Shown one piece after another: positions 7,856 to 63,535 of a stretch of 64,000 nt of DNA (within the stretch, counting starts at the first letter, position 1; each line of letters begins with the position of its first letter). The stretch is from assembly GCA_951828385.1 (NCBI GenBank), contig OX639973.1:2407200-2471199 (forward strand). The letters run 5' to 3'. The notes under the pieces were generated by a model, which was not told where the DNA came from, did no database searches, and worked only from the letters and a program-made list of their open reading frames with translations. Position numbers and translations under genes: made by a program. This DNA comes from an uncultured Poribacteria bacterium. Lineage in GTDB: Bacteria; Poribacteria; WGA-4E; WGA-3G.

Positions 7856-7941
7856 GGCTTACATCTATAAAAGTAAAGTTCCTTATGATATGGGGACGCT
7901 TTGCCATATCCCTTGGCACGCTTCAAAGCTCTGAAAGTAGA

Positions 7942-9453: not shown

Positions 9454-9813
9454 GTTTATAGGTAATCCTGTTCGTAGTAGGGCAATTCATTGCCCGTTGC
9501 TGACGTGCGATAAATCGCACTACTACGAACCTACCCTCAGATTCAAAGTTGAAAGACTACTAGTAGTGCTTCAATGTTGAGTTTATAGGTAATCCTGTTC
9601 GTAGTAGGGCAATTCATTGCCCGTTGCTGACGTGCGATAAATCGCACTACTACGAACCTACCCTCAGATTCAAAGTTGAAAGACTACTAGTAGTGCTTCA
9701 ATGTTGAGTTTATAGGTAATCCTGTTCGTAGTAGGGCAATTCATTGCCCGTTGCTGACGTGCGATAAATCGCACTACTACGAACCTACCCTCAGATTCAA
9801 AGTTGAAAGACTA
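9433..9813. repeat. Tandem repeat of 3 x 127 bp with nested palindromes (gttcgtagtag/ctactacgaac arms; gggcaattcattgccc; tgcgataaatcgca)
   Basis: Units start at 9433, 9560 and 9687 and are identical by eye. The total of 381 bp equals 127 codons. The repeat lies between the two halves of the split gene. Confidence 0.9.
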
Positions 9814-10899: not shown

Positions 10900-11042
10900 A
10901 TCTTTGGACCTTTGTCTGTCGCGTCTGATGCCCAAACAAACTGGAAACTAATGCATTTTTAGGATTGGTAAATCTTTAGCCCTCGTTAGTCGCGAGTTCC
11001 TTTCAACTAAAGCCTATAAGCGCAAATTGCATATAGTACCTT

Positions 11043-13175: not shown

Positions 13176-13341
13176 ACTTTTTTACCTTTGTCTGATCCGC
13201 CTGATGCTCAAACAATTTGGAAACTGATGCATTTTCAGGATTGGTGAATCTTTAGTCTTCGTAGGTCGCGAGTTCCTTTCAACTAAAGCCTATAAGCACA
13301 AACTGCGTATAATATCCAATGAAAAAAATACCTTTACTGAT

Positions 13342-14676
13342 ATTTCTCAAAAGTTATTGTAAAGCAATGATTATCAGGGTTCTTTTGGTATTATTGTATG
13401 AAAATGCGTTATGAAGTCCGTAAGCGTCTGTCTTTCTCCAGTGAGTTGAAGTTGTATTTGATGAAAAGTGCGTCGTTCTGAGATGCTCATTTGTAGCAAC
13501 ATCAGATAACTCATCACTTTTATACCGAGGCTCACATACGCCCCTTGTCTGCTTTCGAGGCTCATGGCAGAGACGTGGAGGTTCGATTTGAAGTGCCGCC
13601 AAAACTGTTCAATACCGTGGTGTTGAGACCAAATCCTGAGAGCCTCAGAGGTGCGTAGGGGTTTTCCAAAGACTAAAAGGGTTCGTATCTTGCCTCTATC
13701 TCGGAAAAATAGGACGACACATTCCCCGAAAGTTGGACTTTCTGCTTTGAGGCGACAGGCGGGTTTATCACAGCCCCATTGATCCGCAGCCAGCGCCACG
13801 CGTCTTTTATGAACCGAAAGTTTCGCCTTTGTATCAGCGATAGTCATGACGTAGTTATTTTTTCCGTGAATCAATATAGAGGTAAACCCCAACTCCGATA
13901 AAGCCTCAACAAGTTTACGGCTCCCATACCATGAATCGAAGGTGATTGGATATTTTCTGATGTCTATGCCGTGGGTATCAAAGAACGCTAAGACTTCTTG
14001 GATCATGGTGATAACGAGAGTAGGTTTATCTGTGTTGCCGCGTCCTTGTTTACTGACGAGACGCATATCTAAGGGGATCACGCGATCTCCGCATTTCAGT
14101 GTGATGCCTAAGAGGTTCTGACACCAGATAGGCGTATTGTGTTTTTTCGAGTAGTAGTTTGAACAGTAAGATAACGTCTCGCCTTCACGCGGGAGATTGC
14201 TATCATCAATACTGACGGTGATACACCGCCGCGATTGTGTTGAAGCACTCTTACTTTCAGTGTCTTTGATGAAATCAACTGCCATCGCACATCCGAGCCG
14301 GAGATTCAAACATTTCGAGTGATAAAGGCTCAGGTTTCCAAGACTGCGATAAAGACGTGCTTTGGGAAGTTTCAAAGCATCGGCGACTTGATTCGGATTG
14401 TAAAGTCCAAAAAGATGGCAAACACAGAGCAGAAGTAGCGTCTCAACGATTTGCTGCCGCATCCGCTGAAAGTAAGAAGAAAGAAGGTCTTGAAAAAAGA
14501 TTGTAGATTTGATAAGGTGATCCTGCATGAGATGGCCTCCTAAAGGTTGTAGTTATCTCTTAGGATGCCATCTCATGCGCTAAAAATCAAGAAACTTTTT
14601 CAAAACCATCGCATTTTCACTTGGCTACACCTGCGATCTCTTGATTATTATTACCTCCTTGATAGATTTGAGAAAT
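13342..14676 (-). mobile_element. IS element of about 1.3 kb (IS701/IS4-like) inserted into codons 7-8 of the third caspase–FGE paralog
   Basis: The ends atttctcaaa... and ...tttgagaaat are imperfect inverted repeats. Upstream, 13176-13341 duplicates the promoter region and ATGAAAAAAATACC start of paralog 2. The flanks read through in frame (…ctg at|g cca gct…). Confidence 0.6.
13374..14528 (-). CDS. DDE transposase (IS701/IS4 superfamily-like)
   Basis: VSIDDSNLPREGE (DDT-like first Asp), FDSWYGS (second Asp), a downstream ...SLESRQG...K signature, and a length of 384 aa. Confidence 0.55.
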   Translation of the reverse strand: MQDHLIKSTIFFQDLLSSYFQRMRQQIVETLLLLCVCHLFGLYNPNQVADALKLPKARLYRSLGNLSLYHSKCLNLRLGCAMAVDFIKDTESKSASTQSRRCITVSIDDSNLPREGETLSYCSNYYSKKHNTPIWCQNLLGITLKCGDRVIPLDMRLVSKQGRGNTDKPTLVITMIQEVLAFFDTHGIDIRKYPITFDSWYGSRKLVEALSELGFTSILIHGKNNYVMTIADTKAKLSVHKRRVALAADQWGCDKPACRLKAESPTFGECVVLFFRDRGKIRTLLVFGKPLRTSEALRIWSQHHGIEQFWRHFKSNLHVSAMSLESRQGAYVSLGIKVMSYLMLLQMSISERRTFHQIQLQLTGERQTLTDFITHFHTIIPKEP

Positions 14677-16711
14677 GCCAGCTTTATTTCTATTTTTTTG
14701 TATTCTTTGCGGTGTAACCATGCTTATTGCTGCAACCGATTTGTTTTCGCAACGCGGTATGAGTGTTACCGTCCAGACCGAGAGTGGAGAAGAGTTCGGT
14801 CTCTATAAAGACTCCCATGCGCTGATTATTGGAAATGGTGCATATCCCGTGGAGAACGGTTGGAATCCGCTTCCGGGTGCAGTGAAAGATGTTAAAGAAG
14901 TTGCAGAGATCCTTGAACGCCACGGATTCAAAGTAACCCTGAAAATAGATGTGACAAAGACTGAGTTCAATGAGGCATTTTCAGAATTTATCTACGATTT
15001 TGGTAAAGATCCGGACAACCGACTTCTATTTTACTACGCGGGTCACGGTTACACGACGAAGGCGGCAACAGGTGAGGATCTCGGCTACCTCGTCATGCTT
15101 GATACGCCAAGTCCTGAGAACGCCGCCAAGTTTGATCTGTATAGTGTGGATATGGTCAAGTTTGTATCCGACTCCAAGAAGATCCACGCCAAGCATGTGC
15201 TATTTATGTTTGATAGCTGCTTTTCTGGAACGGTGCTCAATCTTAGGAATCGGGTTACACCATCCCACATTACAGATCGAATCAAAAATCCGGTGCGTCA
15301 GTTCATCACAGCAGGTCGTGCCGATGAACCTGTGCCGGATAGGAGTGAGTTCAAGAAGGCGTTTTTGAACATCCTTGAAGGGCGCGTTGAAGAACCGACA
15401 CCAGATGGTTATTTGACAGGTGTCGAGTTAGGGGATTACCTCTACCGAACGGTGCCGAAGTTCTCACGAGGACAACACCCGCAACATGGAAAAATCCACG
15501 ACCAGCAGCTAAACACCGGTGATTTTGTGTTCGTACTTTCTCAAAACGATCAGAATGGTAGCGAGGATAACGGTATTGAGTTGAACACGATAGCGACGTT
15601 GGACATAACCAGCACACCGGCGGGCGCGAAAGTCTACGTTGACGGCAACTGGATTGGTACGACTCCGTTGCGCAGTTATCAATTTGATACGGGTATTCGT
15701 CTTGAAAAACAGGTGAATGTCGGCTTAGAGCTTTCGGGTTACAAAAGTCGTGTTAAGAGAATAACGCTAAAAGGCGGTCAACAGGTCCCGTGGGATGTGC
15801 ATTTAGAAAAGATAGAAAGAAAGCCGATACAACCGAAGCCGAGCGTGCCAGAAACACCTCCTGAGAAAGGTCCGAGTATCAGTGAAGAAAAACTGTTGAT
15901 TTCCCGGAATACGCTACAGACAATAGTTGGAAATGACGGTGCTGAGATGGTACTGATTCCAGCCGGCGAATTTGAGATGGGGCACAATGGTACGGCAATA
16001 ACAAAACCTGTGCACACTGTCTACGTTGATGCATTTTACATCGATAAATACGAGGTCACTGTTAGGCAATACAATCAATTCGTTCGTGCCACTGGACATC
16101 CTCCCTTACCGGATTCAGTATCTAAGTATTCTCCAACAGATCAACACCCCGTTGTCCTTGTGACTTGGGATGATGCGATGGCATACGCGAAGTGGACAGG
16201 AAAAAGACTTCCGACAGAGGCGGAATGGGAGAAAGCGGCGCGCGGTGGTTTAGCAGGAAAACGGCATGCCTGGGGCGATGCTGCGCTGGATGGAACACAG
16301 TGTAACTTTGCAGATAAGAGTTTGAACGAAGTGTGGGAGAAAGAAAGAAAACCAGAAGATAATTGGGCGGATAAAAGTATTGATGATGGTTACACACACG
16401 CTGCTCCTGTCGGTAGTTATCCACCGAATGGATATGGTTTATACGATATGGGGGGGAATGTGGCAGAATGGTGCTTTGATGCGTATGATGAAAATTTTTA
16501 TGCCAATTCTCCGCGTCGCAACCCAATAGCAGATATACTTATAAGAGATGGTGAAAATAATATAGTCGCTATTAATAAATTGCGCGTTTTGCGAGGTGGT
16601 TCTTGGTACTATTCGCAAGGGACAGTGTGGATCGCCAGTCGCCTTGGGATTGATCCCAAAAACGCGGCGAGCAGCCAAGGTTTTCGTTGTGCGAAATCGG
16701 TAGATCCTTAA
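14675..16711 (+). CDS. Caspase (C14) – FGE-sulfatase fusion protein. The N-terminus was rebuilt by the IS insertion, with the ATG lying at the IS junction.
   Basis: MPALFLFFCILCGVTMLIAA retains a hydrophobic leader. Caspase and FGE motifs are as in the paralogs. Confidence 0.7.
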   Translation: MPALFLFFCILCGVTMLIAATDLFSQRGMSVTVQTESGEEFGLYKDSHALIIGNGAYPVENGWNPLPGAVKDVKEVAEILERHGFKVTLKIDVTKTEFNEAFSEFIYDFGKDPDNRLLFYYAGHGYTTKAATGEDLGYLVMLDTPSPENAAKFDLYSVDMVKFVSDSKKIHAKHVLFMFDSCFSGTVLNLRNRVTPSHITDRIKNPVRQFITAGRADEPVPDRSEFKKAFLNILEGRVEEPTPDGYLTGVELGDYLYRTVPKFSRGQHPQHGKIHDQQLNTGDFVFVLSQNDQNGSEDNGIELNTIATLDITSTPAGAKVYVDGNWIGTTPLRSYQFDTGIRLEKQVNVGLELSGYKSRVKRITLKGGQQVPWDVHLEKIERKPIQPKPSVPETPPEKGPSISEEKLLISRNTLQTIVGNDGAEMVLIPAGEFEMGHNGTAITKPVHTVYVDAFYIDKYEVTVRQYNQFVRATGHPPLPDSVSKYSPTDQHPVVLVTWDDAMAYAKWTGKRLPTEAEWEKAARGGLAGKRHAWGDAALDGTQCNFADKSLNEVWEKERKPEDNWADKSIDDGYTHAAPVGSYPPNGYGLYDMGGNVAEWCFDAYDENFYANSPRRNPIADILIRDGENNIVAINKLRVLRGGSWYYSQGTVWIASRLGIDPKNAASSQGFRCAKSVDP

Positions 16712-16735: not shown

Positions 16736-18898
16736 ATGAAACACATTATCATTTTACTTGCCTTAACGCTCCTTGCCTTGAATGCTTATAGTGCCAAAGA
16801 GGACTGTCATAACCTTGCCGGAGCGGGACCACAACCGATCCGAAAAGTCGCCAATGAAAACCTTGGCACTATCAACGACTATGAAACTGTTGTCAAAGAG
16901 GATACACGCGATGGTGTGACCTATCTATCCTTTATCGGTGGTAGCCAGCCCAAACCGAACGCCTGCGGACTCAATCCGAAAAACGCCAGACTCAACTGGA
17001 CAGGTTGGGGCGGTCCTATTGATACCGATAACGCCAGTATCGGTCAAGGTGTTGGGTTTCGTAACGAAATCGTTATTGGTGGTATCTATTTTGAGCGCGG
17101 ACTCGGTACGCATGCGAACGCCAAGATCATCTATAACCTCACTGGCGGCGATTATGTTAAATTTGAAGGGTATATCGGCATGTCAGACGAGACGGATCCA
17201 GATGCTTGTGGTAATGCTGGAAGTTCGATTTTTACTTTTAAGGTTGATGATAAGACAGTTTTTGAATCCGGAACCATCCAGGGCGCGGTTAACGGACTGA
17301 ATGTCCCACCAGTGAGAGTTTCTTTTGATATTCCCCCCAATGCGAAAGAGCTCGAAATCATCATCAATACTACAGAGGACGGAGCCTGTGCTGATCATGC
17401 AACGGTTGCTGATGCTAAACTCCTTGATGCTGATGCTGCAGCCACCACTACAACCCCTGAGACACCGATGACCGTCACGACAAGTAAACGGCTGGTGCGT
17501 GTCATCTATTTCGTGCCACTTAACCAGGCGCGGCAATGGAATTTTGAGGATACGCTTGATATACAACTGAAAGAGGTGCAGCAGATCTACGCTGAGCAGT
17601 TAGAAGAACACGGTTACGGCAGAAAAACTTTTGAAATCGAAACGGACAGCGACGGTAAGGTTGTAGTGCATTTTATCTCTGGTAGACAAAGTGACAAATA
17701 CTATCACACTGACACAATCCGCAAAGTTACTGATGAAATCAAGGCGCGCTTTAATGTTGAGCGCGATGTTTATCTCGTTGCTATTGAAAGCAGTGCAGAA
17801 CTGATTGAAGGAAGCTGCGGTGTCGCGTATTTAGATGGTGGCCCCGCGCTTGTCATATCGGCTGGTGATTGTGTCTCTAGTGATTACGGTGTCCCGTTGA
17901 TTGCGCATGAGCTCGGGCACGCCTTTAACTTAGAACACGATTTCCAGGACGATAGTTATTTTATGTCCTACGGGAGTAGTCGCCGAAAGTTTTCGGCATG
18001 CTCCGCAGCTGCGTTGAGCGTCAGCCCGTTCTTGAATCAAGAAGATCCTTATATCGCGACTGGTAATGGACAGTCTACAATGGAATTGGTTTCAGAACCG
18101 GTCTATCCGGAAAATGGCAGCAGTCATACGCTCCAGTTCAAAGTGGGTGACGCAGAGGGTATTCACATTGTTCACTTTCTTGTACCGCATCGCACTATAG
18201 ATCCGATGACCTCCAGCACAGGGGCAACGGTCTACGATTGCAAGAAACTCAACGATGTTAAAAGCGCGACCGTCTCATTTGAATTGCCGGAATACTTTAT
18301 GACTTTCCGTACCAATAAGGTCCATATCCGCATGTTTGATGTCCAGGGCAGCAGTATCGCGAAGGAGTGGACACTTACTGCTGACAATATAGAACCTATC
18401 ATTGTTGAGAACCACACGGATGTCAATAGCGATGGTGTGGTCAATCTCGTCGATCTTGTGATTGTCGCGTCGCGGTACGGTGAACGTATCACAGGCGATC
18501 CGAACCCGAATCCCGATGTCAATCGCGACGGCATTGTGGACATCAACGACCTTATTCTTATCACAAACGAGATGCCTGTCGGTGTTGCACCTACACAACT
18601 CCCAATCGCTACACAACTTTTTCATAACTACCCCAACCCGTTCAACCCTGAGACGTGGATACCGTATATACTCTCGTACTCCGCCGATGTCTCTATTGAG
18701 ATCCATGCAACCGATGGCAACCTCGTTAGACGCTTGGCAATCGGACAGCAACCGGCAGGCCTCTACGTAAACAAAGCGAATGCCGCCTATTGGGATGGCA
18801 GAAACGCCTTTGGTGAACCTATCGCAAGCGGTCTCTATTTCTATACGCTCATTGCTGGTGATTATGCAGCAACCCGCAAAATGATCATCCGAAGATGA
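16736..18898 (+). CDS. Secreted multidomain zinc metalloprotease: NPCBM-like domain, metzincin-like HELGHAFNLEHD site, dockerin type-I repeat pair, and a T9SS-like C-terminal sorting domain
   Basis: Signal peptide. NPCBM-like segment GTHANAKIIYNLTGGDYVKF...EDGACADHATVADAKLL. HEXXHXXXXXH with downstream Asp. DVNSDGVVNLVDLV...DVNRDGIVDINDLIL. C-terminal NYPNPFNPETWIPY...LYFYTLIAGDYAATRKMIIRR. Confidence 0.6.
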   Translation: MKHIIILLALTLLALNAYSAKEDCHNLAGAGPQPIRKVANENLGTINDYETVVKEDTRDGVTYLSFIGGSQPKPNACGLNPKNARLNWTGWGGPIDTDNASIGQGVGFRNEIVIGGIYFERGLGTHANAKIIYNLTGGDYVKFEGYIGMSDETDPDACGNAGSSIFTFKVDDKTVFESGTIQGAVNGLNVPPVRVSFDIPPNAKELEIIINTTEDGACADHATVADAKLLDADAAATTTTPETPMTVTTSKRLVRVIYFVPLNQARQWNFEDTLDIQLKEVQQIYAEQLEEHGYGRKTFEIETDSDGKVVVHFISGRQSDKYYHTDTIRKVTDEIKARFNVERDVYLVAIESSAELIEGSCGVAYLDGGPALVISAGDCVSSDYGVPLIAHELGHAFNLEHDFQDDSYFMSYGSSRRKFSACSAAALSVSPFLNQEDPYIATGNGQSTMELVSEPVYPENGSSHTLQFKVGDAEGIHIVHFLVPHRTIDPMTSSTGATVYDCKKLNDVKSATVSFELPEYFMTFRTNKVHIRMFDVQGSSIAKEWTLTADNIEPIIVENHTDVNSDGVVNLVDLVIVASRYGERITGDPNPNPDVNRDGIVDINDLILITNEMPVGVAPTQLPIATQLFHNYPNPFNPETWIPYILSYSADVSIEIHATDGNLVRRLAIGQQPAGLYVNKANAAYWDGRNAFGEPIASGLYFYTLIAGDYAATRKMIIRR

Positions 18899-51676: not shown

Positions 51677-51747
51677 CACTCCCTCGTCAAATCCCCATGC
51701 TTTAGCTTGCGGGATGTAGACGGCGAAGACTCTGATAGAAAACATAG

Positions 51748-51776
51748 TTGACAATCTAATCATAATGTGGTATAAT
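51748..51776 (+). promoter_or_regulatory. Perfect TTGACA-17-TATAAT promoter driving tnpA
   Basis: ttgaca atctaatcataatgtgg tataat. Confidence 0.55.
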
Positions 51777-51809
51777 ATACTATACACTATAATAGAAAGG
51801 TCCGATATT

Positions 51810-52229
51810 ATGCCTCTCAAAATCGCTAATAAGAAACGTAATTACAAAACAAGCAACAAGACAATCTATAGTTGTCAATATCACGTGATTTGGTGTACCA
51901 AGTATCGTCGTAAAGTTTTGGATACACAGATACAAGGTCGCCTGAAACAACTCATACGAGAAAAACAGGACGCGTATGAATATCAAATCTGTGAGGTTGA
52001 AACTCAACCTGAACATGTCCATTTGCTAATAGAAATACCGCCAATACATTCTATTGATAAAATCGTTGGCAAAATCAAAGCCTATACCGCTAAAGTTTTG
52101 CGAGAAGAATATCCGTCATTGAAAAGTCGTTTACCCTCTCTGTGGACACGTTCAAAATTTGTAAGTTCTTGTGGAGGTGTAACGCTCCAAGTCATGAAGG
52201 ACTATATTGAAGGCCAAAGTGGACAATGA
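51810..52229 (+). CDS. tnpA: IS200/IS605 Y1 (HUH) transposase
   Basis: YHVIWCTKYRRKVL (HUH region), HVHLLIEIPP, and the catalytic Tyr region KIKAYTAKVLREEY. Confidence 0.85.
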   Translation: MPLKIANKKRNYKTSNKTIYSCQYHVIWCTKYRRKVLDTQIQGRLKQLIREKQDAYEYQICEVETQPEHVHLLIEIPPIHSIDKIVGKIKAYTAKVLREEYPSLKSRLPSLWTRSKFVSSCGGVTLQVMKDYIEGQSGQ

Positions 52230-53338
52230 GAAAAGCCAGCAAGTTCAAACTTCAGAATCAATCGAACATCGTCAAAATCGGCAATATGCTTGACGATATG
52301 TGGCAGATACACCTGCATATCATGCTTTTACAGCGTAGGTATTATCGCATGTTCGGTAAAAACCTGTCCGCATCTCGGATCAACACACATATTGCGAAAC
52401 TCAAGAAGCGGACAAAACCCCATTGGGCAGACTTGCCGAGTCAAGTTGTGCAAGACGTTGTTCTGCGATATGGCAAATCACAAGACGCATTTTTCCAAAA
52501 CATAGAAGACCGCAAAGCAGGTAAGACGAGACGTAAAGTGGGTAGACCGAAGATCAAACCGAGACACAAATACACCTCTATGACGTTCACACAAGCCGGC
52601 TACACACTTGAAAACAATCGTATCAAAATCAACTGTATAGATACGTGGTTCTCCTTCCACAAACACCGTGAAATCAACGGAACAATCAAGACGATCACAC
52701 TCAAACGGGACAGGTGCGGTGACTATTGGCTCTGCTTTTCGTGCGAGAATGTTGACGATTCGGAACCGAAACCCAAGACGGGTAAGAGCGCAGGGTTTGA
52801 TTACGGAAACAAAACATTCCTGACAAGCGACGAAGGCGATAAGATAGAATCTCCGCAGTTTTTCAAAGAATCCCTGAAAACGTTGCGATCCCTGAGCAAA
52901 GCCCTGAGTCGTAAAGTCAAAGGTTCTAACAACTATTATCGTGCGTGTCGTGCTTTGGCAAGGCACCACAGAAAAGTCGCCCGCCAAAGAGCAGATTGGC
53001 AATGGAAACTTGCCACCAAACTTTGCACGGAGTTTGATATACTCTGTTTTGAAACACTGAATCTTGACGGTATGAAACGCCTTTGGGGCCGCAAAGTCTC
53101 TGACCATGCCTTCTATCAGTTCATAGAGATATTGAAGCAGAAGTGTGCCAAACATGGTAAAAAACTTGAGCAAATCAGTCAATGGACTGCGACAACAAAA
53201 CCGTGCAGTGATTGTGGATACAAAAATGAAAACCTTTCTCTTTCAGATAGACAGTGGACATGTCCGGAATGTGGTTCACACCACGATAGAGACGTAAACG
53301 CTGCGATTAATATCAAACGGGCGGGCTTGGCCGCCTAA
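52226..53338 (+). CDS. tnpB: TnpB (OrfB) RNA-guided endonuclease
   Basis: RuvC-I AGFDYGNK, RuvC-II FETLNLDGMKR, zinc finger CSDCGYKN...CPECGSHHDRD, and RuvC-III DVNAAINI. Confidence 0.85.
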   Translation: MRKASKFKLQNQSNIVKIGNMLDDMWQIHLHIMLLQRRYYRMFGKNLSASRINTHIAKLKKRTKPHWADLPSQVVQDVVLRYGKSQDAFFQNIEDRKAGKTRRKVGRPKIKPRHKYTSMTFTQAGYTLENNRIKINCIDTWFSFHKHREINGTIKTITLKRDRCGDYWLCFSCENVDDSEPKPKTGKSAGFDYGNKTFLTSDEGDKIESPQFFKESLKTLRSLSKALSRKVKGSNNYYRACRALARHHRKVARQRADWQWKLATKLCTEFDILCFETLNLDGMKRLWGRKVSDHAFYQFIEILKQKCAKHGKKLEQISQWTATTKPCSDCGYKNENLSLSDRQWTCPECGSHHDRDVNAAINIKRAGLAA

Positions 53339-53339
53339 A

Positions 53340-53470
53340 GTGGAGCGATACTAAGACGGGTTTTCTCTTAGAGAAAAGCGCAGTCGCGAGGAAGCACAGG
53401 TTTCCCCTACCTTCAGGTAGTGGGTACCTATGACTTAAAGACACTTCATACCTGTGGTCTCTCAAAACTC
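53340..53470 (+). ncRNA. Candidate omega/reRNA scaffold and right end of the IS
   Basis: By analogy with IS200/IS605 TnpB systems. Nested stem-loops sit immediately 3' of tnpB. Extent not determinable here. Confidence 0.3.
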
Positions 53471-53813
53471 AACGCCAATGTGCTGTTTGTTTTTTCCAAA
53501 TTTCTTTAGCGTATTCCTATAATTACTCCCGCTTCTCAAAAACCCTTTCAAAAGTGTTCAAACGTCTTTCACGGACACTCATTGTGTGTTTTCCCTCCGC
53601 AATCGGGGTTTATCCTGCGTTCAGAACCGATACTCGCAGAACAACTTCTAAAAACCCTGATTTTTTATTTTTTTTTTTCAAATGATGTGAGTTTTCCGTC
53701 CAAAGCTTCGTCTTTAATAATAGAAGGTATGAACCGTATCGCCCTACGTAGTTTTACAAGATGCGGCATCTGATTAAACCTTTCGGCGGATACGGACACG
53801 CCCCCACTGTTTA

Positions 53814-56351
53814 TTGGAAGGACACCTTGTGGAAAAAGAAAATGATGTTCAACTGATTCAAAGAATATTATCAGGCGATGAAGCAGCGTTTGATGTCTTG
53901 GTCCAAAGGCACCAGAAGAGCGTGCACGCCTTGGCGTGGCGGAAGATCGGCGATTTCCATGATGCTGAGGAGATTACACAGGACACATTCCTTCAGGTAT
54001 ACAAAAAACTCCCGACACTCAAGGACCCTTATAAATTTGCTGGGTGGTTGTATGTCATCACAAATCGGCTTTGTCTTGATCGGATGCGGCAGAAAAACCT
54101 TACGATACAATCGTTGGAGGACACACCTGTGGAAGAAGTTGAAAAATCCTCTTATACCCATCACGTATCGGAACAACGGCATACAGAAATCACCGAGCGT
54201 CGTCGTGCTATCGTCAAAAAACTTCTCGAAAAACTCCCAGAGAGTGAACGGACAGTCATGATCCTCCATTATCTCGGCGAAATGACGGTGAAAGAAATTA
54301 GCAAGTTCCTGGGCATCTCTGCAAACGCAATTCATAACCGGCTGTATCGGGCACGAAAGCGGTTACAAGAGGAAGAATCCCTCCTTGTTGAAGAAGTTCT
54401 CGGTGGTGTGCAGATACCGGCGAGTGTCAGCCAAAACATTATGCAGCGGGTCGCTGACATAAAACTCGCGCCGCAAACAACTCCAAAACCCGTTACTCCG
54501 TGGATCGCTTTCGGTACCGTTTTCCTTCTGCTTGCATTACTCCTTGGGGCGAGCAATCAATACCTCACCCGTTTTCAGAAACCGTACAGTTTCGAGGCGA
54601 CATCTGAACCGACCATCGCCATCGTTGACGCCCCCGTCGTTCTTGAGACCGACGCGAAACCCGCACTGCGAAGTCAAGTTGGACAGGATACCGCCTTAAA
54701 TCAAAGAACTGGTGCAGGCTTACATGGATCTGAAACTGTCTCAACAACGGGGTTACCGAAGCAGCCAGAAAATATTGAGGCATGGATGCCAGATGAAAAT
54801 CTACGTCGGGCTATCAAATCTGAACTCAAACTTGGCGATATTCCGCTTGAGATAGCACATCTCCGGCAACTTGAGCGGTTACTCAGTATTGGGGACAGCA
54901 TAGAAAGTATTGTCGGCTTAGAACATGCTGTCAATCTTAAAATTCTACATCTTGCGCCCAACAAAATCTCGGATCTCACACCACTCGCGAACCTACACAA
55001 CCTTCGGATACTGAAGCTCTATCTCAACAGACTTGTAGACGTTTCACCCCTTGCGGGATTAGTAGGTTTAGAGACTTTGCATCTACAAAATAACGAGATC
55101 GTTGACATCTCACCCCTTGCCGGACTCGTCAACCTAAGGGATTTACAACTCGATGGCAATCACATCGAATATTTTTCACCGCTCGCCGGATTAACAAAAC
55201 TTCAGGTCCTTAGGATTAACGACAACAGAGCGATCGATATTTCATCTATCCGGACATCCAATTTGACAGAATTTCTGTATGATCCGACCTTTAATATCCC
55301 AGAGATTCCGAACCGTGACCGGATCATGGCTCGCCAGTATCCATCCGTTTTCGCAGCCTTGCATAACATCGTCAATTTACCGACGCTCTCATGGGACGAA
55401 AGATTAGTCTACCACGACCTGTATTTCTCTAACCCTATGTTTGGGCTTCATTGGCGGTGGACTCCTACAAGAATGAAAATCTCTGGAAATTTTCGGACAG
55501 CAAAGCAACAGCGAAATACGATGCTTAAAGAGAATCCAAATATGATTTTTCTCGTCGGGATTTATCACTATGGTACACAAGATACATTCGTTCAGCAGGC
55601 TGTTGAAGTTGCCAAATGTGGCATCTATGATGGTATCTTTTTAAATTGGTGGCAAGGCGAAAGGGTTGATGCAAAAGTTGCTATACTGCAGAAAATTCGT
55701 GAAGTGGTTAGAGATGATTTTCTCATTATCGTCAACGGGCTTCGTTCTAAAGCGCCACACTTAGCCCCCTATGTCAATGGCACATTCATGGAAACGAGAC
55801 GGGACCATCCACAGAGTTACACGCATACCGAACTTCAAGAGATTGAAAGCACTTTGCTATGGTCAGAGAAAAATCTTCGATCTCCACAGATTAATTCCTT
55901 AGAGGGTTGGGGACTCGCTGAAGAACCCTTAGATTCACCGCGTAACCAGCAATGGATGCGGGTCTTTACAACCTTGAGTTTAACGCATTCTGACGGCTAT
56001 GTTTCATACGTAACGGGGATTTCATCACTCAACCACACACATCATTATCCCATTTGGAAGGGACATTCCGACGAACACGCACAAGGAAAACTACACGATC
56101 ATACGCATCAGCACTACTGGTATGATTTCTGGGATGCGGATCTCGGCCAGCCAATAGGTGGAAAAGGACAGCGCTACCGCGATCGCGCTGGGTTATTCAT
56201 TCGGGAGTTTACCAACGGATGGGTAGTCTATAACCGCAGCGGGAAAGCACAGCGGATCCAGTTGCCGATGCAAGTCGCTGGTGTTACGAGTGGTATCACC
56301 AGCACATCACATCCTGTCCCTGATTTAGACGGTGAGATCTTCCTAAAGTAG
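53814..56351 (+). CDS. ECF sigma-70 factor fused via a single TM helix to an extracytoplasmic LRR plus TIM-barrel glycosidase-like domain
   Basis: Sigma region 2 (EEITQDTFLQVYKKL...AGWLYVITNRLCLDRMRQ). Region 4 (LPESERTVMILHYLGEMTVKEISKFLGISANAIHNRLYRARKRL). TM helix VTPWIAFGTVFLLLALLLGA. LRRs (L..L.L..N.I.D.SPLAGL). Conserved C-terminal domain shared with 56536 and 58739. Confidence 0.65.
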   Translation: MEGHLVEKENDVQLIQRILSGDEAAFDVLVQRHQKSVHALAWRKIGDFHDAEEITQDTFLQVYKKLPTLKDPYKFAGWLYVITNRLCLDRMRQKNLTIQSLEDTPVEEVEKSSYTHHVSEQRHTEITERRRAIVKKLLEKLPESERTVMILHYLGEMTVKEISKFLGISANAIHNRLYRARKRLQEEESLLVEEVLGGVQIPASVSQNIMQRVADIKLAPQTTPKPVTPWIAFGTVFLLLALLLGASNQYLTRFQKPYSFEATSEPTIAIVDAPVVLETDAKPALRSQVGQDTALNQRTGAGLHGSETVSTTGLPKQPENIEAWMPDENLRRAIKSELKLGDIPLEIAHLRQLERLLSIGDSIESIVGLEHAVNLKILHLAPNKISDLTPLANLHNLRILKLYLNRLVDVSPLAGLVGLETLHLQNNEIVDISPLAGLVNLRDLQLDGNHIEYFSPLAGLTKLQVLRINDNRAIDISSIRTSNLTEFLYDPTFNIPEIPNRDRIMARQYPSVFAALHNIVNLPTLSWDERLVYHDLYFSNPMFGLHWRWTPTRMKISGNFRTAKQQRNTMLKENPNMIFLVGIYHYGTQDTFVQQAVEVAKCGIYDGIFLNWWQGERVDAKVAILQKIREVVRDDFLIIVNGLRSKAPHLAPYVNGTFMETRRDHPQSYTHTELQEIESTLLWSEKNLRSPQINSLEGWGLAEEPLDSPRNQQWMRVFTTLSLTHSDGYVSYVTGISSLNHTHHYPIWKGHSDEHAQGKLHDHTHQHYWYDFWDADLGQPIGGKGQRYRDRAGLFIREFTNGWVVYNRSGKAQRIQLPMQVAGVTSGITSTSHPVPDLDGEIFLK

Positions 56352-56481
56352 CGACATCGCCTACAGATGCCGATAGCGATGGAACGTCAACATCTTTAAC
56401 CCCGTTGCCATCGAAAATAGTTTTTATAGTGAAGCCCGAAAATATGTGAACATTCCACGGTAGAGATCCGCACGCCCCACT

Positions 56482-56510
56482 CGTAGGGGTTGGGTTACCC
56501 AACCCCTACG
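56482..56510. other. Perfect 29-bp palindrome cgtaggggttgggt t acccaacccctacg (14-bp stem)
   Basis: It lies between the first and second LRR paralogs. No U-tract follows. Confidence 0.5.
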
Positions 56511-56535
56511 GTGCCCCGCGGATGCACAAATAATT

Positions 56536-58602
56536 ATGGGCTTTACTATAACTCCAGAGAGACAAACGAATTCCTACTACCCATATAGGAGAATACGCCT
56601 TGTGAAAATTAATAGATTCATATTTGCAATTATATTCACCGGATTGCTACTGATTGTCACACCCGGAGGCATCACACACGCCCAAGAATGGATGCCGGAT
56701 GCGATCCTCCGCCATGCCATCTCCGAGAAGTTGGGGATTGAAACACTAACGATTGCGGATATGCAACGCCTCGATCACTTTGTGGCTGATGGTAAATTCA
56801 AGGCTGATCTTAGAGAAATTCAGAGTCTTAAAGGGTTGGAACACGCCATCAATCTTAAATTCTTAGCCATCAATTTTACGAAAGTGTCGGATATAACACC
56901 GCTTGCGGGACTCGAAAATTTACGCGGCTTAGGGTTGGGTCATAATAGGATTACGGATATAACACCCCTCGCCGGTTTGATACACTTACAAGAGTTGAAC
57001 TTGCAAGATAACCAGATTTCAGATACTTCGCCGCTTAAAGGGTTGGTGAACCTCAAAGTGTTGGACTTAGCAGGAAATCAGATCGTCGATTTTACACCGA
57101 TTTATGGGCTTACCGGCATAGAAACATTACGTCTGGGTCTGACAGGATCAGGGATATCTTTAGACTCAGAAGTCTTGCAGAGGCTGAATCCGGTAGACGG
57201 GCCAGTTGTTTGTGAAATAGCAAGAGCACCTATACACTCTCGCCTTGAAAACATAACGTACCCATCAGTTTTTCAAGCCTGTGGGGATATAATCAATCTG
57301 CCAGAACTTTCGCGGGCGGAGGGGATAGCGTATCACGATCTGTTTTTCTGCCGTGAAACATTCGGGTGGACTTGGATTCCTACGTCAGGCGGAAAACTGA
57401 GATTAAGAGGAGACCTTGAGGAGGCCACGAGAGCAACAGATCAAATACGCTCTCAGAATCCAAATATGCTTTTCCTTACAAGCATAGAGTACTATGTTGC
57501 GAATCGAGACGAATATCCAGAAGATTGGCCATATTGGTTCAGAAATGGATCCGGAAATAGATTAGAAATTACGGGATGGGATCAATATGTAAAAGACTTC
57601 ACGCATCCTGCTGTGCAAGAGATGGTTATCCAACAAGCGATTGAAGTTGCAAAATGTGGGGTTTTTGACGGAATTGCCATAGATCATTGGGCGAAGGCAC
57701 TTGAAGGATATATAACCGTAGAAGAAGCCGATACCGCAAAGGATCGTATCATACAAGGGATTCGTGATGCTGTTGGTGAGGATTTCTTGATACTGGTAAC
57801 GACGACTAACACGATTGGCACGACTATTCCGAGGCATGCGGAATATATCAATGGACTTTTCATGGAAACTTATGAAGATTATGAGGGCGGTTATACCTAC
57901 GCAAAACTTTCTGAAATTGAAAGCACGCTGTTGTGGGCTGAAGAAAACCTCCGAGAGCCGCAAATCAACTGTTTGGCAGGCAGGGGCGTTAGGAGCGAAC
58001 CGCTGGATTCTCCGAGAAATCTACAATGGATGCGTCTGTGGACGACGATGAGTTTGACGCATTCAGATGGCTATGTCATGTTTACTATGGGAGGTGGCCT
58101 TGACCATCCCCCCCACGTCTTTGAATTTTTGCCGGGTCATGCGGATGCTCATGCACAGGGCATACGTCACACTCACCAAAACACGAAGTACTGGTACGAC
58201 TTCTGGGAGGCGGATCTCGGTCAACCGGTTGGTGGCGACGAAACCAAAGCGCAGCTTTATGAGGATCGCGAGGGGTTGTTTATCCGGGAGTTCACTAACG
58301 GTTGGGCGGTGTATAATCGGTCTGGTACAGCACAGGAGATAGAACTTCCGCAGGCGGTTTCCGGCTGGTCGAGCGGTGTGGAGAATCAACACCGGCATAC
58401 GTTGGCGGATTTGGACGGTGAGATTTATTTGAAGGTGCCCGTCGTGATGGCGGATGTCAATGGTGATGGCACGGTGAATGTGTTGGACCTCGTCATCGTC
58501 GCTAATGCGTTGGGGGAAGCGGCACCGGATATCAATGGCGATGGCACCGTTGATGTCTTAGATTTAGTGTTGGTCGCGAACGCCTTCAAAGACCCCCAAT
58601 AA
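56536..58602 (+). CDS. Secreted LRR plus glycosidase-like domain protein with a C-terminal dockerin type-I repeat pair
   Basis: Hydrophobic leader. LRRs. A conserved core ([14 protein letters not shown]...LTHSDGYV...[14 protein letters not shown]...[14 protein letters not shown]). [14 protein letters not shown] / [14 protein letters not shown]. Confidence 0.6.
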
Positions 58603-58738
58603 GTATGAGTCATGCGACATCATTTATCGGAAATAGTATAAGATCCACCCTAATTCCATAAAAAAGGTTCTGTTTATACAAAAGATTACGCGATTATTTA
58701 TCAAAGTTACGTTACACAAACGAATGAGGTAAAGCCCT

Positions 58739-61303
58739 ATGAAAATCAAGCCCTCTTTTTGCTACAGTTTCCACCTTCTTTTTATGTTTTTCTATCTCAG
58801 TCTTACGCCTGTGCACGCCCAAGACTGGCTCCCTGATCCAGTGTTACGGAAAACGATTCGGGAATCTCTGGGGCTACCGGCAAACACACCGCTGACAAAA
58901 GACCGTATGCAACAACTGATAAGTCTTGATGGAGTTAACAAAGGCATCACGGATCTCCGGGGTTTAGAGTTTGCGACGCACCTAAGAATCCTGCGCTTGG
59001 GAGGTAATGAGAATAACATCACAGATATCCGTCCGCTTGCCAACTTAACAAGTCTTGTAGGGCTTCATATCTGGCGTGTTCGGCGACACGACACGCATCG
59101 GGCACCCCTCGACATCCGTCCGCTTGCCAATCTCGTCAACTTAGAGGTGCTCTCTCTGGAACGACAGGGACTTTCGGATATAAGCGTGCTTGCGAACCTA
59201 ACAAAGCTTCATAAGTTAGCACTGACGCACAACAACATCGTCGACTTTAGCCCGTTAGCAGGATTGACACATCTGCGGACGTTGTGGATAAAAAACAACT
59301 GGGGGACGGATTTGAGTCCACTTGAAGGGTTGAATATTACAGATTTCCGCTATGACGAAGTGTGTGATTTCACACCGGAAGGGGAGTCCGTCACTGCGCG
59401 TGTTGAGAACAGAACATTTCCGTCGATAGTCGCGCTGTTTCCGAAAGGGTCAATAGAGGAGATGACCCGGTATGATTTCTATTATGGCACCCATTTCGGG
59501 TTGTGGTGGAAGCGAACGGAAACCGAGCCGACACACGGCTTAGCGATTCGATTTTCAGGGGATATTGTGCAAGCCAGAGAGCACCGCCAACAGATGCTCC
59601 AACAGAATCCAAATATGTTGTTTTTTCTCGGGGTAGCTTTGCATAACCACAACCCTCCCGTTGCGGCAACGGCTTTTCCAGCAGATTCCGATTTTTGGCT
59701 GCGAGATCGTCAAGGGAATATCATCCAGAATGCGAATGATGCGTGGATGTTCAATATTTTGAACCCAGCGTTACAGAATATGCTGATTGAACGAATTGTA
59801 GGCTTTGCAAAGTGCGGTATTTTTGATGGTGTCCTGTTAGATGAAATGGGAAACTATGGTATTGGCGGATCAGGTCACGCGTTTTACCCGGCAATAACAG
59901 ATGTGCCCTTAACGAAGGAAGCGATTATTGAGGCGCACATCCGAATTCTAAGCGAGGTCCGCGCCCGCGTTCCTGAGGACTTTTTGATCGTCGTCAATGC
60001 TACGAGACACAAAATTCCACTCGTTGCGGCATACATCAATGGTAATGTGATGGAACCGGGTTCGGATTATTCATACAGAGGACTTGCCGAGATTGAAAGC
60101 ACTTTACTTTGGTCTGAGGAACATTTCCGAGAACCGCAGCTGAATTGGGCACAAGGGTTTCTTATCACCTCGGAACCCCCGGAGAGTCCTGGGAACCGTC
60201 AACGAATGCGGCTCTTTACAACGATGGGACTCACACACTCCGATGGCTACATAAACGTCCACTATCATTCACAGAGTTGGCAGCGGTGGGGAGATGTCGC
60301 TGCAAATCACTGGTATGACTTCTATGATGCCGACCTCGGCACGCCGATCGGCGAAACAGCGCAACGCTGCGACGACTGCGAAGGTCTCTTCGTGCGTGAG
60401 TTCACCAACGGGTGGGCGGTCTACAACCGGAGCGGCAAAGCACAGACGATCCAATTGCCCGTCAAAGCCACGGGTGTCGCAAGTGGTATCACAAACACCC
60501 AACATATCGTCCCCGATTTAGATGGTGAGATATATCTGAAACAGGCACCCAGTGTGAATAGCGTTGGCATTGTCACCGTGCTTGCGGTTGCGACCGGGGC
60601 GCCGCAGGAACCCGAATCCGCATGGATGCCGGATGCCGCCTTGCGAGCGGTAGTTCGCGAAGAAATGGGGCTTCCAACACATATCGCTTTGGAAAAATCC
60701 CGTATGCCACAGTTAATCCATGTTGACGGAAACAACAAAGGCATCACAGACCTGACGGGTTTGGAGTTTGCGACGAACCTAAGAAACTTGCACGTGGGGG
60801 GTCATAAGAATCAGATAACCGACCTTCGCCCGCTTGCGAACTTGACGAGCCTCGCGCATCTCTATATCTGGCGGATACCGCCAAACACGCGTCTTGTCGC
60901 ACTTGACATCCGTCCGCTCGCCAATCTTATCAACTTAGAGGCACTCTCACTGGCGGGAAACGGGATTACCGATATAACCCTACTGGCGGGCATGAAGAAG
61001 CTCGGCAAACTCATCCTTACAGATAACCGGATTGAAGACTTTAGTCCGCTGGCTAAACTGATAAGTTTACGAACGTTGAGGATTCGGAACAACCCCGGCA
61101 CAGATTTCAGCCCACTTGCCGCTTTACCCCTTATCGATTTTCGCCTTGATGCCGATGTCAACGCCGATGGATTTGTGAATGTGCTCGACCTTGTTACCGT
61201 CGTCAACGCATTTGGCGAAACTGACCCCGATCTCAATGGCGATGGCGTTGTCAATATTCAGGATTTGGTCATTGTGGCGAACGCCTTCAGAGACCTCCAA
61301 TAA
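58739..61303 (+). CDS. Secreted LRR – glycosidase-like – second LRR module – dockerin protein (internal LRR duplication)
   Basis: Signal peptide. The LRR block near residues 30-200 is re-used at about 630-800 (WMPDAALRAVVREEMGLP...). Dockerin pair DVNADGFVNVLDLV / DLNGDGVVNIQDLV. Confidence 0.6.
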   Translation: MKIKPSFCYSFHLLFMFFYLSLTPVHAQDWLPDPVLRKTIRESLGLPANTPLTKDRMQQLISLDGVNKGITDLRGLEFATHLRILRLGGNENNITDIRPLANLTSLVGLHIWRVRRHDTHRAPLDIRPLANLVNLEVLSLERQGLSDISVLANLTKLHKLALTHNNIVDFSPLAGLTHLRTLWIKNNWGTDLSPLEGLNITDFRYDEVCDFTPEGESVTARVENRTFPSIVALFPKGSIEEMTRYDFYYGTHFGLWWKRTETEPTHGLAIRFSGDIVQAREHRQQMLQQNPNMLFFLGVALHNHNPPVAATAFPADSDFWLRDRQGNIIQNANDAWMFNILNPALQNMLIERIVGFAKCGIFDGVLLDEMGNYGIGGSGHAFYPAITDVPLTKEAIIEAHIRILSEVRARVPEDFLIVVNATRHKIPLVAAYINGNVMEPGSDYSYRGLAEIESTLLWSEEHFREPQLNWAQGFLITSEPPESPGNRQRMRLFTTMGLTHSDGYINVHYHSQSWQRWGDVAANHWYDFYDADLGTPIGETAQRCDDCEGLFVREFTNGWAVYNRSGKAQTIQLPVKATGVASGITNTQHIVPDLDGEIYLKQAPSVNSVGIVTVLAVATGAPQEPESAWMPDAALRAVVREEMGLPTHIALEKSRMPQLIHVDGNNKGITDLTGLEFATNLRNLHVGGHKNQITDLRPLANLTSLAHLYIWRIPPNTRLVALDIRPLANLINLEALSLAGNGITDITLLAGMKKLGKLILTDNRIEDFSPLAKLISLRTLRIRNNPGTDFSPLAALPLIDFRLDADVNADGFVNVLDLVTVVNAFGETDPDLNGDGVVNIQDLVIVANAFRDLQ

Positions 61304-61609
61304 TCTGAGACAGATAAGTAGATTGTTCAGGCGTTTCCGTACACCGTAGGGGTAATATTGCCTCACAGTAAGAATAGAAACAGCGTATTTAAGCAACTGC
61401 ACCCGGTATGAAGTTTAAGAAAATATTCGGGTAATTCTATAAAGAACAGTTCTCAATCAAGACGGTTCTATTATCCAGCAAATCCTTGAACCCTGTAAAT
61501 CCTGATTCAGACAATGGATACCTACATTACCCGATTAAATTCTTAATCTTCATTAGGGGTGCTATTGCTTCGCAGTGAGAATGCATAGGTAGCAACTTAT
61601 GTTACTTCT

Positions 61610-62916: not shown

Positions 62917-63277
62917 AAAATACTCCTATGTTTTTAGACCAACGCACCGAGGATGAATTGTCCAAAGTTTAATAATATGTGAAAATTATACTAAATTTTG
63001 TTATTTTAATCAATATTAAGAATTCGACCCTCACAGAAAAATGGCTAAAAAATTCAGATAATTTTCATTTTTTTTCAGATTATGCACGTTTTCAACACCC
63101 AAATTACGTCTTTAGAAATCAAGCGATAAAATAATCGTTTTGTTTAACGATTTCGTTCAAGGTTTTGAAGACTTAACATTTGGCGGTAATTAAAGAGGTC
63201 AACGGATTAATACACCACTTTGATACCATACTATGTGTTTTGTCTCAGTCGTATACATAACAAAGGTTATTGTAAAT

Positions 63278-63535
63278 ATGTCTATGAAAACAAACGCACT
63301 TACCACTAAGCTATTCAAACTCCTAATGGGGGTCGGGGTCCTTATATTTTTCGTTACGTGTGTGCTTAGATTTGCTTCCGGACCTGTCGAAGCTGTTAGT
63401 GCAGGTTTAGTTGTGGTCGGCATATTGGTCCTCATGATTATGGAGTCCAAGATCGGTATGATTGTCGTAGGATCGCTGACGGCAGGTAGCGCATCATTCC
63501 TGATCGGACACATGGTCGGAAGACTTTTAGGATGA
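63278..63535 (+). CDS. Small hydrophobic membrane protein
   Basis: Three predicted TM segments. Its stop overlaps the next start (ATGA). Confidence 0.3.
   Translation: MSMKTNALTTKLFKLLMGVGVLIFFVTCVLRFASGPVEAVSAGLVVVGILVLMIMESKIGMIVVGSLTAGSASFLIGHMVGRLLG

Follow-up and report, generated by a model that had tools for sequence, protein, structure and literature searches.

In a 64,000-nt stretch of DNA from an uncultured Poribacteria bacterium (contig OX639973.1; the whole stretch is called the window hereafter) we analysed three open reading frames (ORFs), A, B and C, which lie on the + strand within 53814-61303. Gene A encodes, in one polypeptide, an extracytoplasmic function (ECF) sigma factor, a single transmembrane (TM) helix and an extracytoplasmic part that consists of leucine-rich repeats (LRRs) and a barrel related to glycoside hydrolase (GH) family 168, the barrel being predicted to be catalytically dead. 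Genes B and C encode secreted, dockerin-bearing paralogs of this ectodomain with a catalytic dyad predicted to be intact. Taking the observations together we tentatively, and with confidence falling just short of even, regard A as a member of an expanded, Poribacteria-specific group of one-polypeptide receptors in which an ECF sigma factor is tethered without an anti-sigma domain via an invariant stalk, the ectodomains being eukaryote-like repeats (LRR, Kelch, BNR) and pseudo-enzymes, and in which sensors were born repeatedly by capture of a secreted enzyme followed by catalytic knock-out. A probably lets the cell sense the substrate of the downstream enzymes and switch on their production.

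The N-terminal part of A is a sigma-70 protein of the ECF type (group 4). Residues 29-95 match Pfam Sigma70_r2 (56 bits, cutoff 24), residues 133-184 match Sigma70_r4_2 (59.3 bits, cutoff 25.7) and the NCBIfam model sigma70-ECF TIGR02937 scores 102 bits (cutoff 42.9), and regions 1.1 and 3 gave no match in Pfam or NCBIfam down to E 0.1. The closest solved sequence relative of this part is SigW (5wuq, E 1.6e-24). A Kyte-Doolittle scan revealed exactly one hydrophobic segment, at about aa 229-248, the only one to exceed 1.6. The linker between the sigma domain and this helix comprises about 40 aa and contains neither Cys nor His; a class I anti-sigma domain is about twice as long. The stalk that follows the helix is, judged by its sequence, a candidate site-1 cleavage or signal-transfer region. 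Five LRR_4 matches (74.5 bits) come next, and the C-terminal GHL15 match is weak (18.7 bits, below the cutoff of 27). The sequence-only reading of this locus had proposed sigma-70 regions 2 and 4, one TM helix and an extracytoplasmic LRR part, and Pfam, TIGR02937 and Kyte-Doolittle analysis agree with it, the N-terminus matching the models of both sigma regions above their cutoffs. ORF A opens at TTG 53814 and ends at 56351 (845 aa); GTG 53829, preceded by GGAAGGA, is the likelier start, and the resulting 840 aa equal the length given by gene callers in relatives.

This architecture is widespread. Searching 5.8 billion proteins we found more than 120 proteins with 50-99% identity that cover 99% of A and have the same domain set. 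The named relatives all originate from Candidatus Poribacteria, and several are located on the same multi-megabase contigs and are therefore paralogs. We also scanned one genome per GTDB species with the two peptides that are best conserved in the N-terminal module and obtained at least 558 confirmed genomic matches to the sigma-TM-stalk module. The best 80 of these loci include 79 with Poribacteria in their titles, the remaining one (L072) belonging to a metagenome-assembled genome of an unclassified 'uncultured bacterium', and within the same 80 loci single chromosomes carry four or more copies. The fusion genes are often in tandem or clustered, two or three of them being only a few kb apart (L003:19793-22682, L012, L016, L022, L053, L060, L066, L068).

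An alignment of A with 118 full-length homologs identified the sigma domain as the most conserved part (mean identity to A 77%) and gave a constant order of elements: sigma domain, Cys/His-free linker of about 40 aa, TM helix, RFQKPYSFEA-SEPT, some 70 further stalk residues and WMPD. The modules are combined as in a mosaic, as the identity of P0032 to A amounts to 92% in the sigma region and 46% in the barrel, and that of P0010 to 68% and 85%, respectively. The same sigma-TM-stalk head also bears LRR-less GHL15-like ectodomains (GHL15-only sensors of 718-755 aa), Kelch propellers, BNR/sortilin-like propellers or LRRs only. With the linker-TM-stalk segment as the only query, HMMER was run exhaustively against 1.84 billion cluster representatives and gave 234 clusters at 50% identity, 178 of them with E<=1e-10. 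In all complete proteins among the best 150 matches the segment occupies about residues 181-305 and follows sigma regions 2 and 4, and 98 clusters contain both of these regions. A split ancestor with the stalk behind an anti-sigma domain was looked for in the same 150 matches and rejected: the matches lacking a sigma part are truncated at the N-terminus, and none represents a split form. Some sigma-fused homologs of A carry a C-terminal dockerin (P0005, P0025, P0163); such a sensor ectodomain could be docked on the same cohesin scaffold as the enzymes.

The sequence-only reading had described the conserved domain of the three proteins as a carbohydrate-active-like TIM barrel, which holds, and as unassignable, which it no longer is: profile search and modelling place it as GHL15/GH168-like. 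In the AlphaFold2 model of the B domain (pLDDT 90, pTM 0.90) a (beta/alpha)8 barrel is followed by a C-terminal beta-sandwich. A phmmer search of PDB sequences with the B domain yielded no match, and a profile made of full-length proteins was swamped by internalin LRR matches; only a trimmed, GHL15-only profile reached GH168, matching chains of this family with E 2.8e-9 at the sequence level and aligning the CG-yDG--lD-W strand with DGvFMDaf and FLIxVN with LIVYN. The relation to GH168, a family of endo-alpha-1,3-L-fucanases acting on sulfated fucans, is one of barrel homology. The domains studied here are only 13-15% identical to solved GH168 enzymes and differ from them by the additional C-terminal beta-sandwich, the N-terminal LRRs and the C-terminal dockerin, and A differs further in lacking the nucleophile and a conserved loop and in scoring below the GHL15 cutoff.

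In GH168 enzymes an Asp at the end of beta4 (D172) is the nucleophile and a Glu at the end of beta6 (E243) the acid/base, both being essential, and an Asn on beta5 (N218) binds the -1 sugar (PMC12534559). At the nucleophile position A carries Asn611 (55644-55646), B Asp383 (57682-57684) and C Asp368 (59840-59842). A Glu is located at the end of the model's sixth strand in all three proteins (A 660; B 444, 57865-57867; C 439, 60053-60055) and is near-invariant in the secreted paralogs; the sequence alignment to GH168 stopped short of it. In addition, A lacks about 41 aa after aa 586, a segment that ends in DFTHP, is kept in the enzymes and aligns with GH168, and the same segment was lost in A's clade and, independently, in a second sensor lineage. 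Counted over distinct domain sequences, the Asp and Glu dyad is kept in 112 of 113 secreted paralogs and in 10 of 151 sigma-fused copies (Fisher p 2e-61), and a UPGMA (unweighted pair group method with arithmetic mean) tree requires at least eight switches between fused and secreted forms and at least 11 dyad changes under Fitch parsimony. N/Q, G/A or G/G occupy the dyad positions of sensor domains whose identity to a secreted enzyme reaches 82-91%. Over the 110 columns that are at least 95% conserved in the enzymes the median retention in sensors is 0.91, and the nucleophile, with a retention of 0.15, is the lowest position inside the barrel. Kept columns combined with a lost nucleophile are the pattern expected where selection acts against turnover and binding is maintained. 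From the alignments we predict that the sensors are repeatedly inactivated pseudo-enzymes and that the barrel of A is catalytically dead.

The products of B and C are secreted dockerin-bearing paralogs of A, as had been suggested. Their N-terminal signal-peptide-like segments end in THA|QEW (B) and VHA|QDW (C), so that the mature proteins start at W(M/L)PD, the motif that also opens the LRR domain of A, and A and B are 45% identical over 596 aa (E 1e-157), A and C 38% over 609 aa and B and C 38% over 677 aa. GHL15 is matched above threshold in both, by aa 325-590 of B with 35.7 bits (cutoff 27) and by C with 56.6 bits. Dockerin_1 (cutoff 22.9) is found at aa 639-683 of B (58450-58584; 35.2 bits) and at aa 806-849 of C (61154-61285; 25.6 bits), in each case as a type I dockerin with two Ca-binding repeats whose duplicated DxNGDGxV motifs are visible. 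C contains a second LRR block from 60623, and with 59% identity over 186 aa between its two blocks the duplication noticed earlier is confirmed. The likelier start of B is GTG 56602 rather than 56536, and a protein encoded on a 6.66-Mb contig matches B with 100% identity. No cohesin was detected by Pfam among the 23 window ORFs scanned.

We then enumerated bipartite motifs de novo in 69 non-redundant upstream regions with a shuffled control, and the signal was far above that control. The aligned element lies about 120 bp 5' of the start codons and has a fixed spacing: a T-tract, ATGCAAC/GTTTTC, N and then TTCGTCTTTAATAATAG, which gives GCAAC-N17-CGTC as the family element, found 5' of A and of most paralogs. 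An AAC/CGT architecture is typical of ECF promoters. A T-rich tract also precedes the -35-like element of A, and with a position weight matrix (PWM) built from 39 non-redundant upstream sites the site at 53670-53723 scores 63.8. Related loci of 1.3 Mb in total contain 97 sites with a score of at least 25; 71 of them sit within 350 bp 5' of a fusion gene in the correct orientation, and 25 of the remaining 26 are on the strand of the fusion gene. Many of these remaining sites precede ORFs whose N-termini are signal-peptide-like or hydrophobic, among them secreted Kelch paralogs that neighbour sensors of the Kelch type. Promoter sub-variants track paralog subfamilies, and the sigma domain of A would presumably recognise its own element. 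The sequence-only reading had proposed looking for ECF-type promoters at the two other paralogs; there is no PWM site with a score of at least 12 upstream of B or C. No terminator-like hairpin was found in the A-B or B-C gap. Since B and C have no promoter copy and no such hairpin separates the genes, an A-B-C operon is likely, and co-transcription would be the simplest reading of the sequence.

Two further features of the upstream regions may be recorded. The only other match to the PWM in the window is weak (score 19.8; 63068-63121, +) and lies about 110 bp 5' of ORF 63233-63535, which encodes a very hydrophobic protein of 100 aa and may be a minor regulon member. The leader of about 105 nt between the -10 element and the start codon of A (53724-53828) is conserved across paralogs with different ectodomains; it follows the pattern GGGTATGAACCGTATCGC...CGTAATTTTACAAGA-TCGG-ATCTGATTAAGC, with equivalents in L001, L012, L013, L015, L021, L025 and others. 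The leader and upstream region had chance-level Rfam matches only, and RNAalifold on 14 leaders gave no consensus structure.

The combination of sensor and secreted paralogs recurs in other genomes. Orthologous loci (L001, L002, L005/L006; 59-99% identity) share the upstream genes with the window, namely a thiamine pyrophosphate (TPP) enzyme, xylose-isomerase-like TIM barrels and a pectate-lyase-2-like protein, and have three to seven LRR/GHL15/dockerin genes after the sensor, to which L002 adds a cohesin-dockerin protein. Two unrelated paralogous loci, L003 adjoining rpsL-rpsG-fusA and L004 adjoining a PorV-like gene, show the same arrangement, the sensor being accompanied by LRR-(GHL15)-dockerin and LRR-cohesin proteins, and cohesin-bearing LRR proteins are encoded beside the sensors in L002, L003 and L004. 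A secreted GHL15 gene is present downstream on the same strand in 17 of 34 GHL15-type sensors versus 3 of 46 other sensors (p 1e-5). As a separate observation, the Kelch-type sensors of L049, L060, L066, L068 and L072 are found beside secreted Kelch proteins with the promoter sub-variant CACAATTTT...TGTGTCTTTAATTATAG, which suggests that the pairing of sensor and secreted paralog extends beyond the GH168-like class.

We favour, with moderate confidence, a mechanism in which a ligand triggers the proteolytic release of the sigma factor, which then autoregulates its own gene positively and induces B and C. The ECF sigma factor would be held at the inner face of the membrane by the short linker and the one TM helix. 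The GH168-like barrel of A, predicted to be unable to cut because its nucleophile Asp is replaced by Asn and one loop is deleted, would probably still bind a glycan. The ligand would presumably be a matrix glycan, whether (sulfated) fucan-like or of another type, or an oligosaccharide derived from it, and the signal would be relayed via the stalk. Stalk and TM segment would be cut by site-1 and site-2 proteases, as for IutY and the RsgI/RseA-type anti-sigma factors, and fused ECFs offer a precedent for release by proteolysis (PMC8999054). The freed sigma factor would bind the RNA polymerase core and fire the GCAAC-N17-CGTC promoter of its own gene, with a predicted transcript start about 7-10 nt downstream of CGTCTTTAAT (about 53718-53725), resulting in positive feedback and co-transcription of the downstream B and C. 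Their predicted catalytically intact products would be secreted and would dock via their dockerins onto cohesin scaffolds encoded elsewhere. The earlier proposal that a sigma-fused member senses and controls the secreted family has computational support of four independent kinds, namely the promoter pattern, the recurrent loci of sensor and secreted paralogs, the catalytic loss in fused copies and the conservation of the sigma domain; its signal, release and regulon are what we infer.

Several points weigh against this mechanism and the pseudo-enzyme reading on which it draws. Glycan binding by the dead barrel of A is assumed, and the assignment of the beta6 Glu is based on the secondary structure of the model and on spacing, not on a structural alignment at the level of residues. 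As the numbers of sensors and enzymes lack phylogenetic independence, the tree and parsimony analysis was added. As for the tether, neither anti-sigma nor zf-HC2 families are among the Pfam matches of A at E<=0.1, and an AlphaFold2 model of the N-terminal 325 aa, aimed at whether the linker docks on the sigma domain like an anti-sigma helix, was uninformative (mean pLDDT 48, stalk about 30). The stalk is predicted to be disordered, at low confidence, and has no similarity to known autoproteolytic (SEA-like) modules. A secreted paralog lies directly downstream in only half of the GHL15-type sensors, and the nearest downstream gene is the one most similar to the sensor in 6 of 11 loci, which is not convincing. 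Nearly the same promoter is present at all paralogs, and the promoter of A could be under the control of another family member or of a master ECF. Poribacteria are presumably diderm; with such an envelope the sensor domain may be periplasmic and see oligosaccharides, not polymers.

The ectodomain might alternatively sense a protein through its LRRs, be it a sponge or bacterial surface protein or the secreted paralogs and scaffoldin, with the barrel as a structural remnant and the same signalling downstream. LRRs are classic protein-binding modules (internalin-like), LRR-only, Kelch and BNR ectodomains sit on the same head without a glycosidase-like part, A's clade has lost the barrel loop of about 41 aa and some sensors are dockerin-bearing (P0005, P0025). 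We nevertheless consider this unlikely, since the non-catalytic barrel residues (HSDGY, YWYDFW, the beta5 Asn) are kept with the median retention given above, the losses are often isosteric (D->N, E->Q) as expected if binding is preserved, and the GHL15-only sensors have no LRRs at all.

It appears quite improbable that the sigma factor works while tethered, in a ToxR/CadC-like manner in which the ligand alters oligomerisation or accessibility and proteolysis is dispensable, an option that the sequence-only reading had raised. Deep binding in the RNA polymerase core is sterically hard about 40 residues from the membrane, and the TM helix contains conserved G, S, N and Q residues, which destabilise helices and are typical of substrates of site-2 proteases. 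The short, conserved linker and the lack of an anti-sigma domain that would need to be destroyed fit activity at the membrane, but IutY, the only characterised fused ECF, needs cleavage by Prc/RseP, and truncation activates both IutY and SCO4117 (PMC8999054).

Ligand-triggered release also has to be weighed against a storage or envelope-stress device that is released by general damage or misfolding, the diversity of ectodomains being shuffling without sensory meaning. The ectodomains are clearly shuffled between paralogs, and many ECF systems respond to envelope stress (PMC7826278). We regard this as very unlikely, as it leaves unaccounted for the targeted, repeated loss of catalytic residues with the rest of the active-site region kept, the match of ectodomain type with the type of the downstream secreted gene, and the Kelch sensors beside promoter-bearing secreted Kelch genes. 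An artefactual fusion, caused by a frameshift or by misassembly, or a pseudogene in decay has next to no probability and finds no support beyond the insertion sequence (IS) element upstream, as the more than 120 full-length homologs of the same architecture come from independent assemblies including complete chromosomes, each of the 80 loci analysed contains the module, the reading frame is uninterrupted, the sigma regions exceed curated cutoffs and the IS element lies outside promoter and gene.

A belongs to a known kind, the ECF sigma factors with regulatory transmembrane extensions, its closest counterparts being ECF52/IutY and SigI/RsgI. Like A, hybrid ECFs (IutY; ECF52, ECF48, ECF53) consist of an N-terminal ECF sigma domain, TM and an extracytoplasmic C-terminal part. 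For IutY of Pseudomonas putida (ECF243) release by Prc and RseP was shown (PMC8999054). Release by proteolysis was proposed for ECF52, whose extracytoplasmic part includes a carbohydrate-binding domain, and the actinobacterial ECF52 member SCO4117 combines a zinc-finger anti-sigma domain, TM helices and a carbohydrate-binding domain (PMC8999054, PMC5826349). A resembles ECF52 in that its TM helix is followed by an extracytoplasmic, carbohydrate-related part, here LRRs and the GH168-like barrel. Hybrid ECFs, however, have extensions of up to 400 aa and are defined by a FecR-like or ZAS anti-sigma module between sigma domain and TM, whereas A has at this place the short Cys/His-free linker without any anti-sigma match. 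The label 'sigma/anti-sigma-like' given to A earlier is thus right for the topology only, because no recognisable anti-sigma domain is present. The A family also stands apart by its occurrence in Poribacteria, its LRR, pseudo-GH168, Kelch and BNR ectodomains and its many paralogs per genome, and a sensor ectodomain paralogous to co-encoded secreted enzymes has not been described for hybrid ECFs. The A family probably shares the release-by-proteolysis logic of the hybrid ECFs.

The closest functional likeness of the A system, made of parts that are not homologous to it, is SigI/RsgI of Clostridium thermocellum. There, multiple paralogous membrane sensors activate alternative sigma factors and thereby control dockerin-bearing cellulosome enzyme genes as well as their own operons, expose carbohydrate-binding or GH-like modules akin to those of the enzymes, and signal through a conserved juxtamembrane region and RseP (PMC10328401, PMC12203970, PMC4711584). 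RsgI is a separate anti-sigma factor that binds a SigI-type sigma factor, whereas the sigma factor of A is ECF-type and covalently fused; A contains neither RsgI_N nor a SigI-specific domain in Pfam or NCBIfam, its stalk is unrelated in sequence, and the hosts are a Gram-positive cellulolytic clostridium and a member of the Poribacteria, respectively. With canonical pairs of ECF and membrane anti-sigma factor (SigW/RsiW, RpoE/RseA) A shares the restriction to regions 2 and 4 and an AAC...CGT-type promoter of its own; unlike in these pairs no separate anti-sigma gene lies beside A, the +1 gene encodes a secreted enzyme and the tether is covalent.

In a literature search we found no paper that links Poribacteria with ECF sigma factors or dockerins or that describes the fusion, and the main text of the 2021 ECF reclassification (Casas-Pastor) mentions neither LRR nor Poribacteria. 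Three features look unreported: the tether without an anti-sigma domain, the repeated conversion of an enzyme into a dead-enzyme sensor, and the large expansion, with ectodomains of eukaryote-like repeats, in a sponge-symbiont phylum. Among the ECF sigma factors with regulatory extensions the family would form a further, large group that has apparently not been described before, and since it has no anti-sigma module it poses a clean question, namely whether a covalent membrane tether alone silences a sigma factor. The many independent, often isosteric dyad losses, which affect the sigma-fused copies and hardly ever the secreted ones, make it an unusually clear natural case of enzyme-to-sensor conversion. 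The loci further point to a cellulosome-like dockerin/cohesin system for glycan degradation with dedicated sensors in sponge symbionts, a parallel to clostridial SigI/RsgI built from different parts. They also suggest that the 'eukaryote-like' LRR, Kelch and BNR domains of Poribacteria are often receptor ectodomains, which reframes a long-standing assumption about sponge symbiosis: if our joint reading is true, a considerable fraction of the enigmatic eukaryote-like proteins found in sponge symbionts would be receptors wired to transcription and not secreted effectors of host manipulation. The locus of A provides directly testable constructs, i.e. promoter, sigma domain and ectodomain.

Table 1. 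Positions of the A-B-C locus and adjoining features in the window
Feature	Position	Strand	Evidence
IS200/IS605 insertion (TnpA 51765-52229; TnpB 52226-53338)	51677..53434	+	Pfam Y1_Tnp, OrfB_IS605, Cas12f1-like_TNB
Family ECF-type promoter element; -35-like GTGAG (consensus GCAAC) 53687-53691, 17-nt spacer, -10-like CGTCTTTAATA from 53709	53670..53723	+	PWM
Gene A: membrane-tethered ECF sigma factor with LRR and pseudo-GH168 ectodomain	53829..56351	+	ORF scan, Pfam, NCBIfam, homologs
Sigma-70 region 2 (aa 29-95) and region 4 (aa 133-186)	53898..54371	+	Pfam and NCBIfam above cutoffs
Cytoplasmic linker, aa 187-228, Cys/His-free	54372..54497	+	Pfam scan, hydropathy, alignment
Single TM helix, aa 229-248 (PWIAFGTVFLLLALLLGAS)	54498..54557	+	Kyte-Doolittle; conserved in family
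Extracytoplasmic juxtamembrane stalk, aa 249-323, invariant RFQKPYSFEA-SEPT	54558..54782	+	Family conservation
Internalin-like LRR domain of A, begins at WMPD	54783..55283	+	Pfam/NCBIfam, profile matches
GHL15/GH168-like (beta/alpha)8 domain of A, predicted catalytically dead	55284..56348	+	Alignment, AlphaFold2 model of B, profile search
Gene B: signal peptide, LRR, GH168-like domain with predicted intact dyad, dockerin	56536..58602	+	ORF scan, Pfam, alignment, AlphaFold2
Gene C: signal peptide, LRR, GH168-like domain with predicted intact dyad, second LRR block, dockerin	58739..61303	+	ORF scan, Pfam, alignment

The IS200/IS605 insertion is neighbouring context only. It abuts the stop codon of the upstream AP_endonuc_2 gene about 235 bp 5' of the promoter, and strain L005 (99% identical) does not have it; the breakpoints, derived from the comparison with L005, show that the 380-bp promoter region was spared. 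A TnpB gene is also found within the syntenic region of L002.

Comparison with L005 further revealed that B is a recombinant of the first (5' end, 91%) and the fourth (rest, 83.5%) downstream paralogs of that strain, and that the window lacks the genes located between these two in L005. Two or three L005 paralogs are absent from the window (56549-61335 vs L005:12597-22143). From these sequences the B chimera appears to be an instance of copy-number variation via unequal recombination among tandem paralogs. The sensor and its upstream region are 98.5% identical to L005 (53435-56426 vs L005:9612-12598) and the flanking genes about 90-92%, which hints at recent recombination or a sweep.

Elsewhere in the window, 7885-16711 contains an unusual set of three paralogs with caspase (Peptidase_C14) and PEGA domains, two of which add a C-terminal FGE-sulfatase (formylglycine-generating-enzyme-like) domain. 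The protein encoded at 16736-18898 combines NPCBM, an M12/reprolysin-like metallopeptidase, Dockerin_1 and FlgD_ig; with a dockerin on this metallopeptidase, the dockerin system of the genome also carries non-glycosidase cargo.

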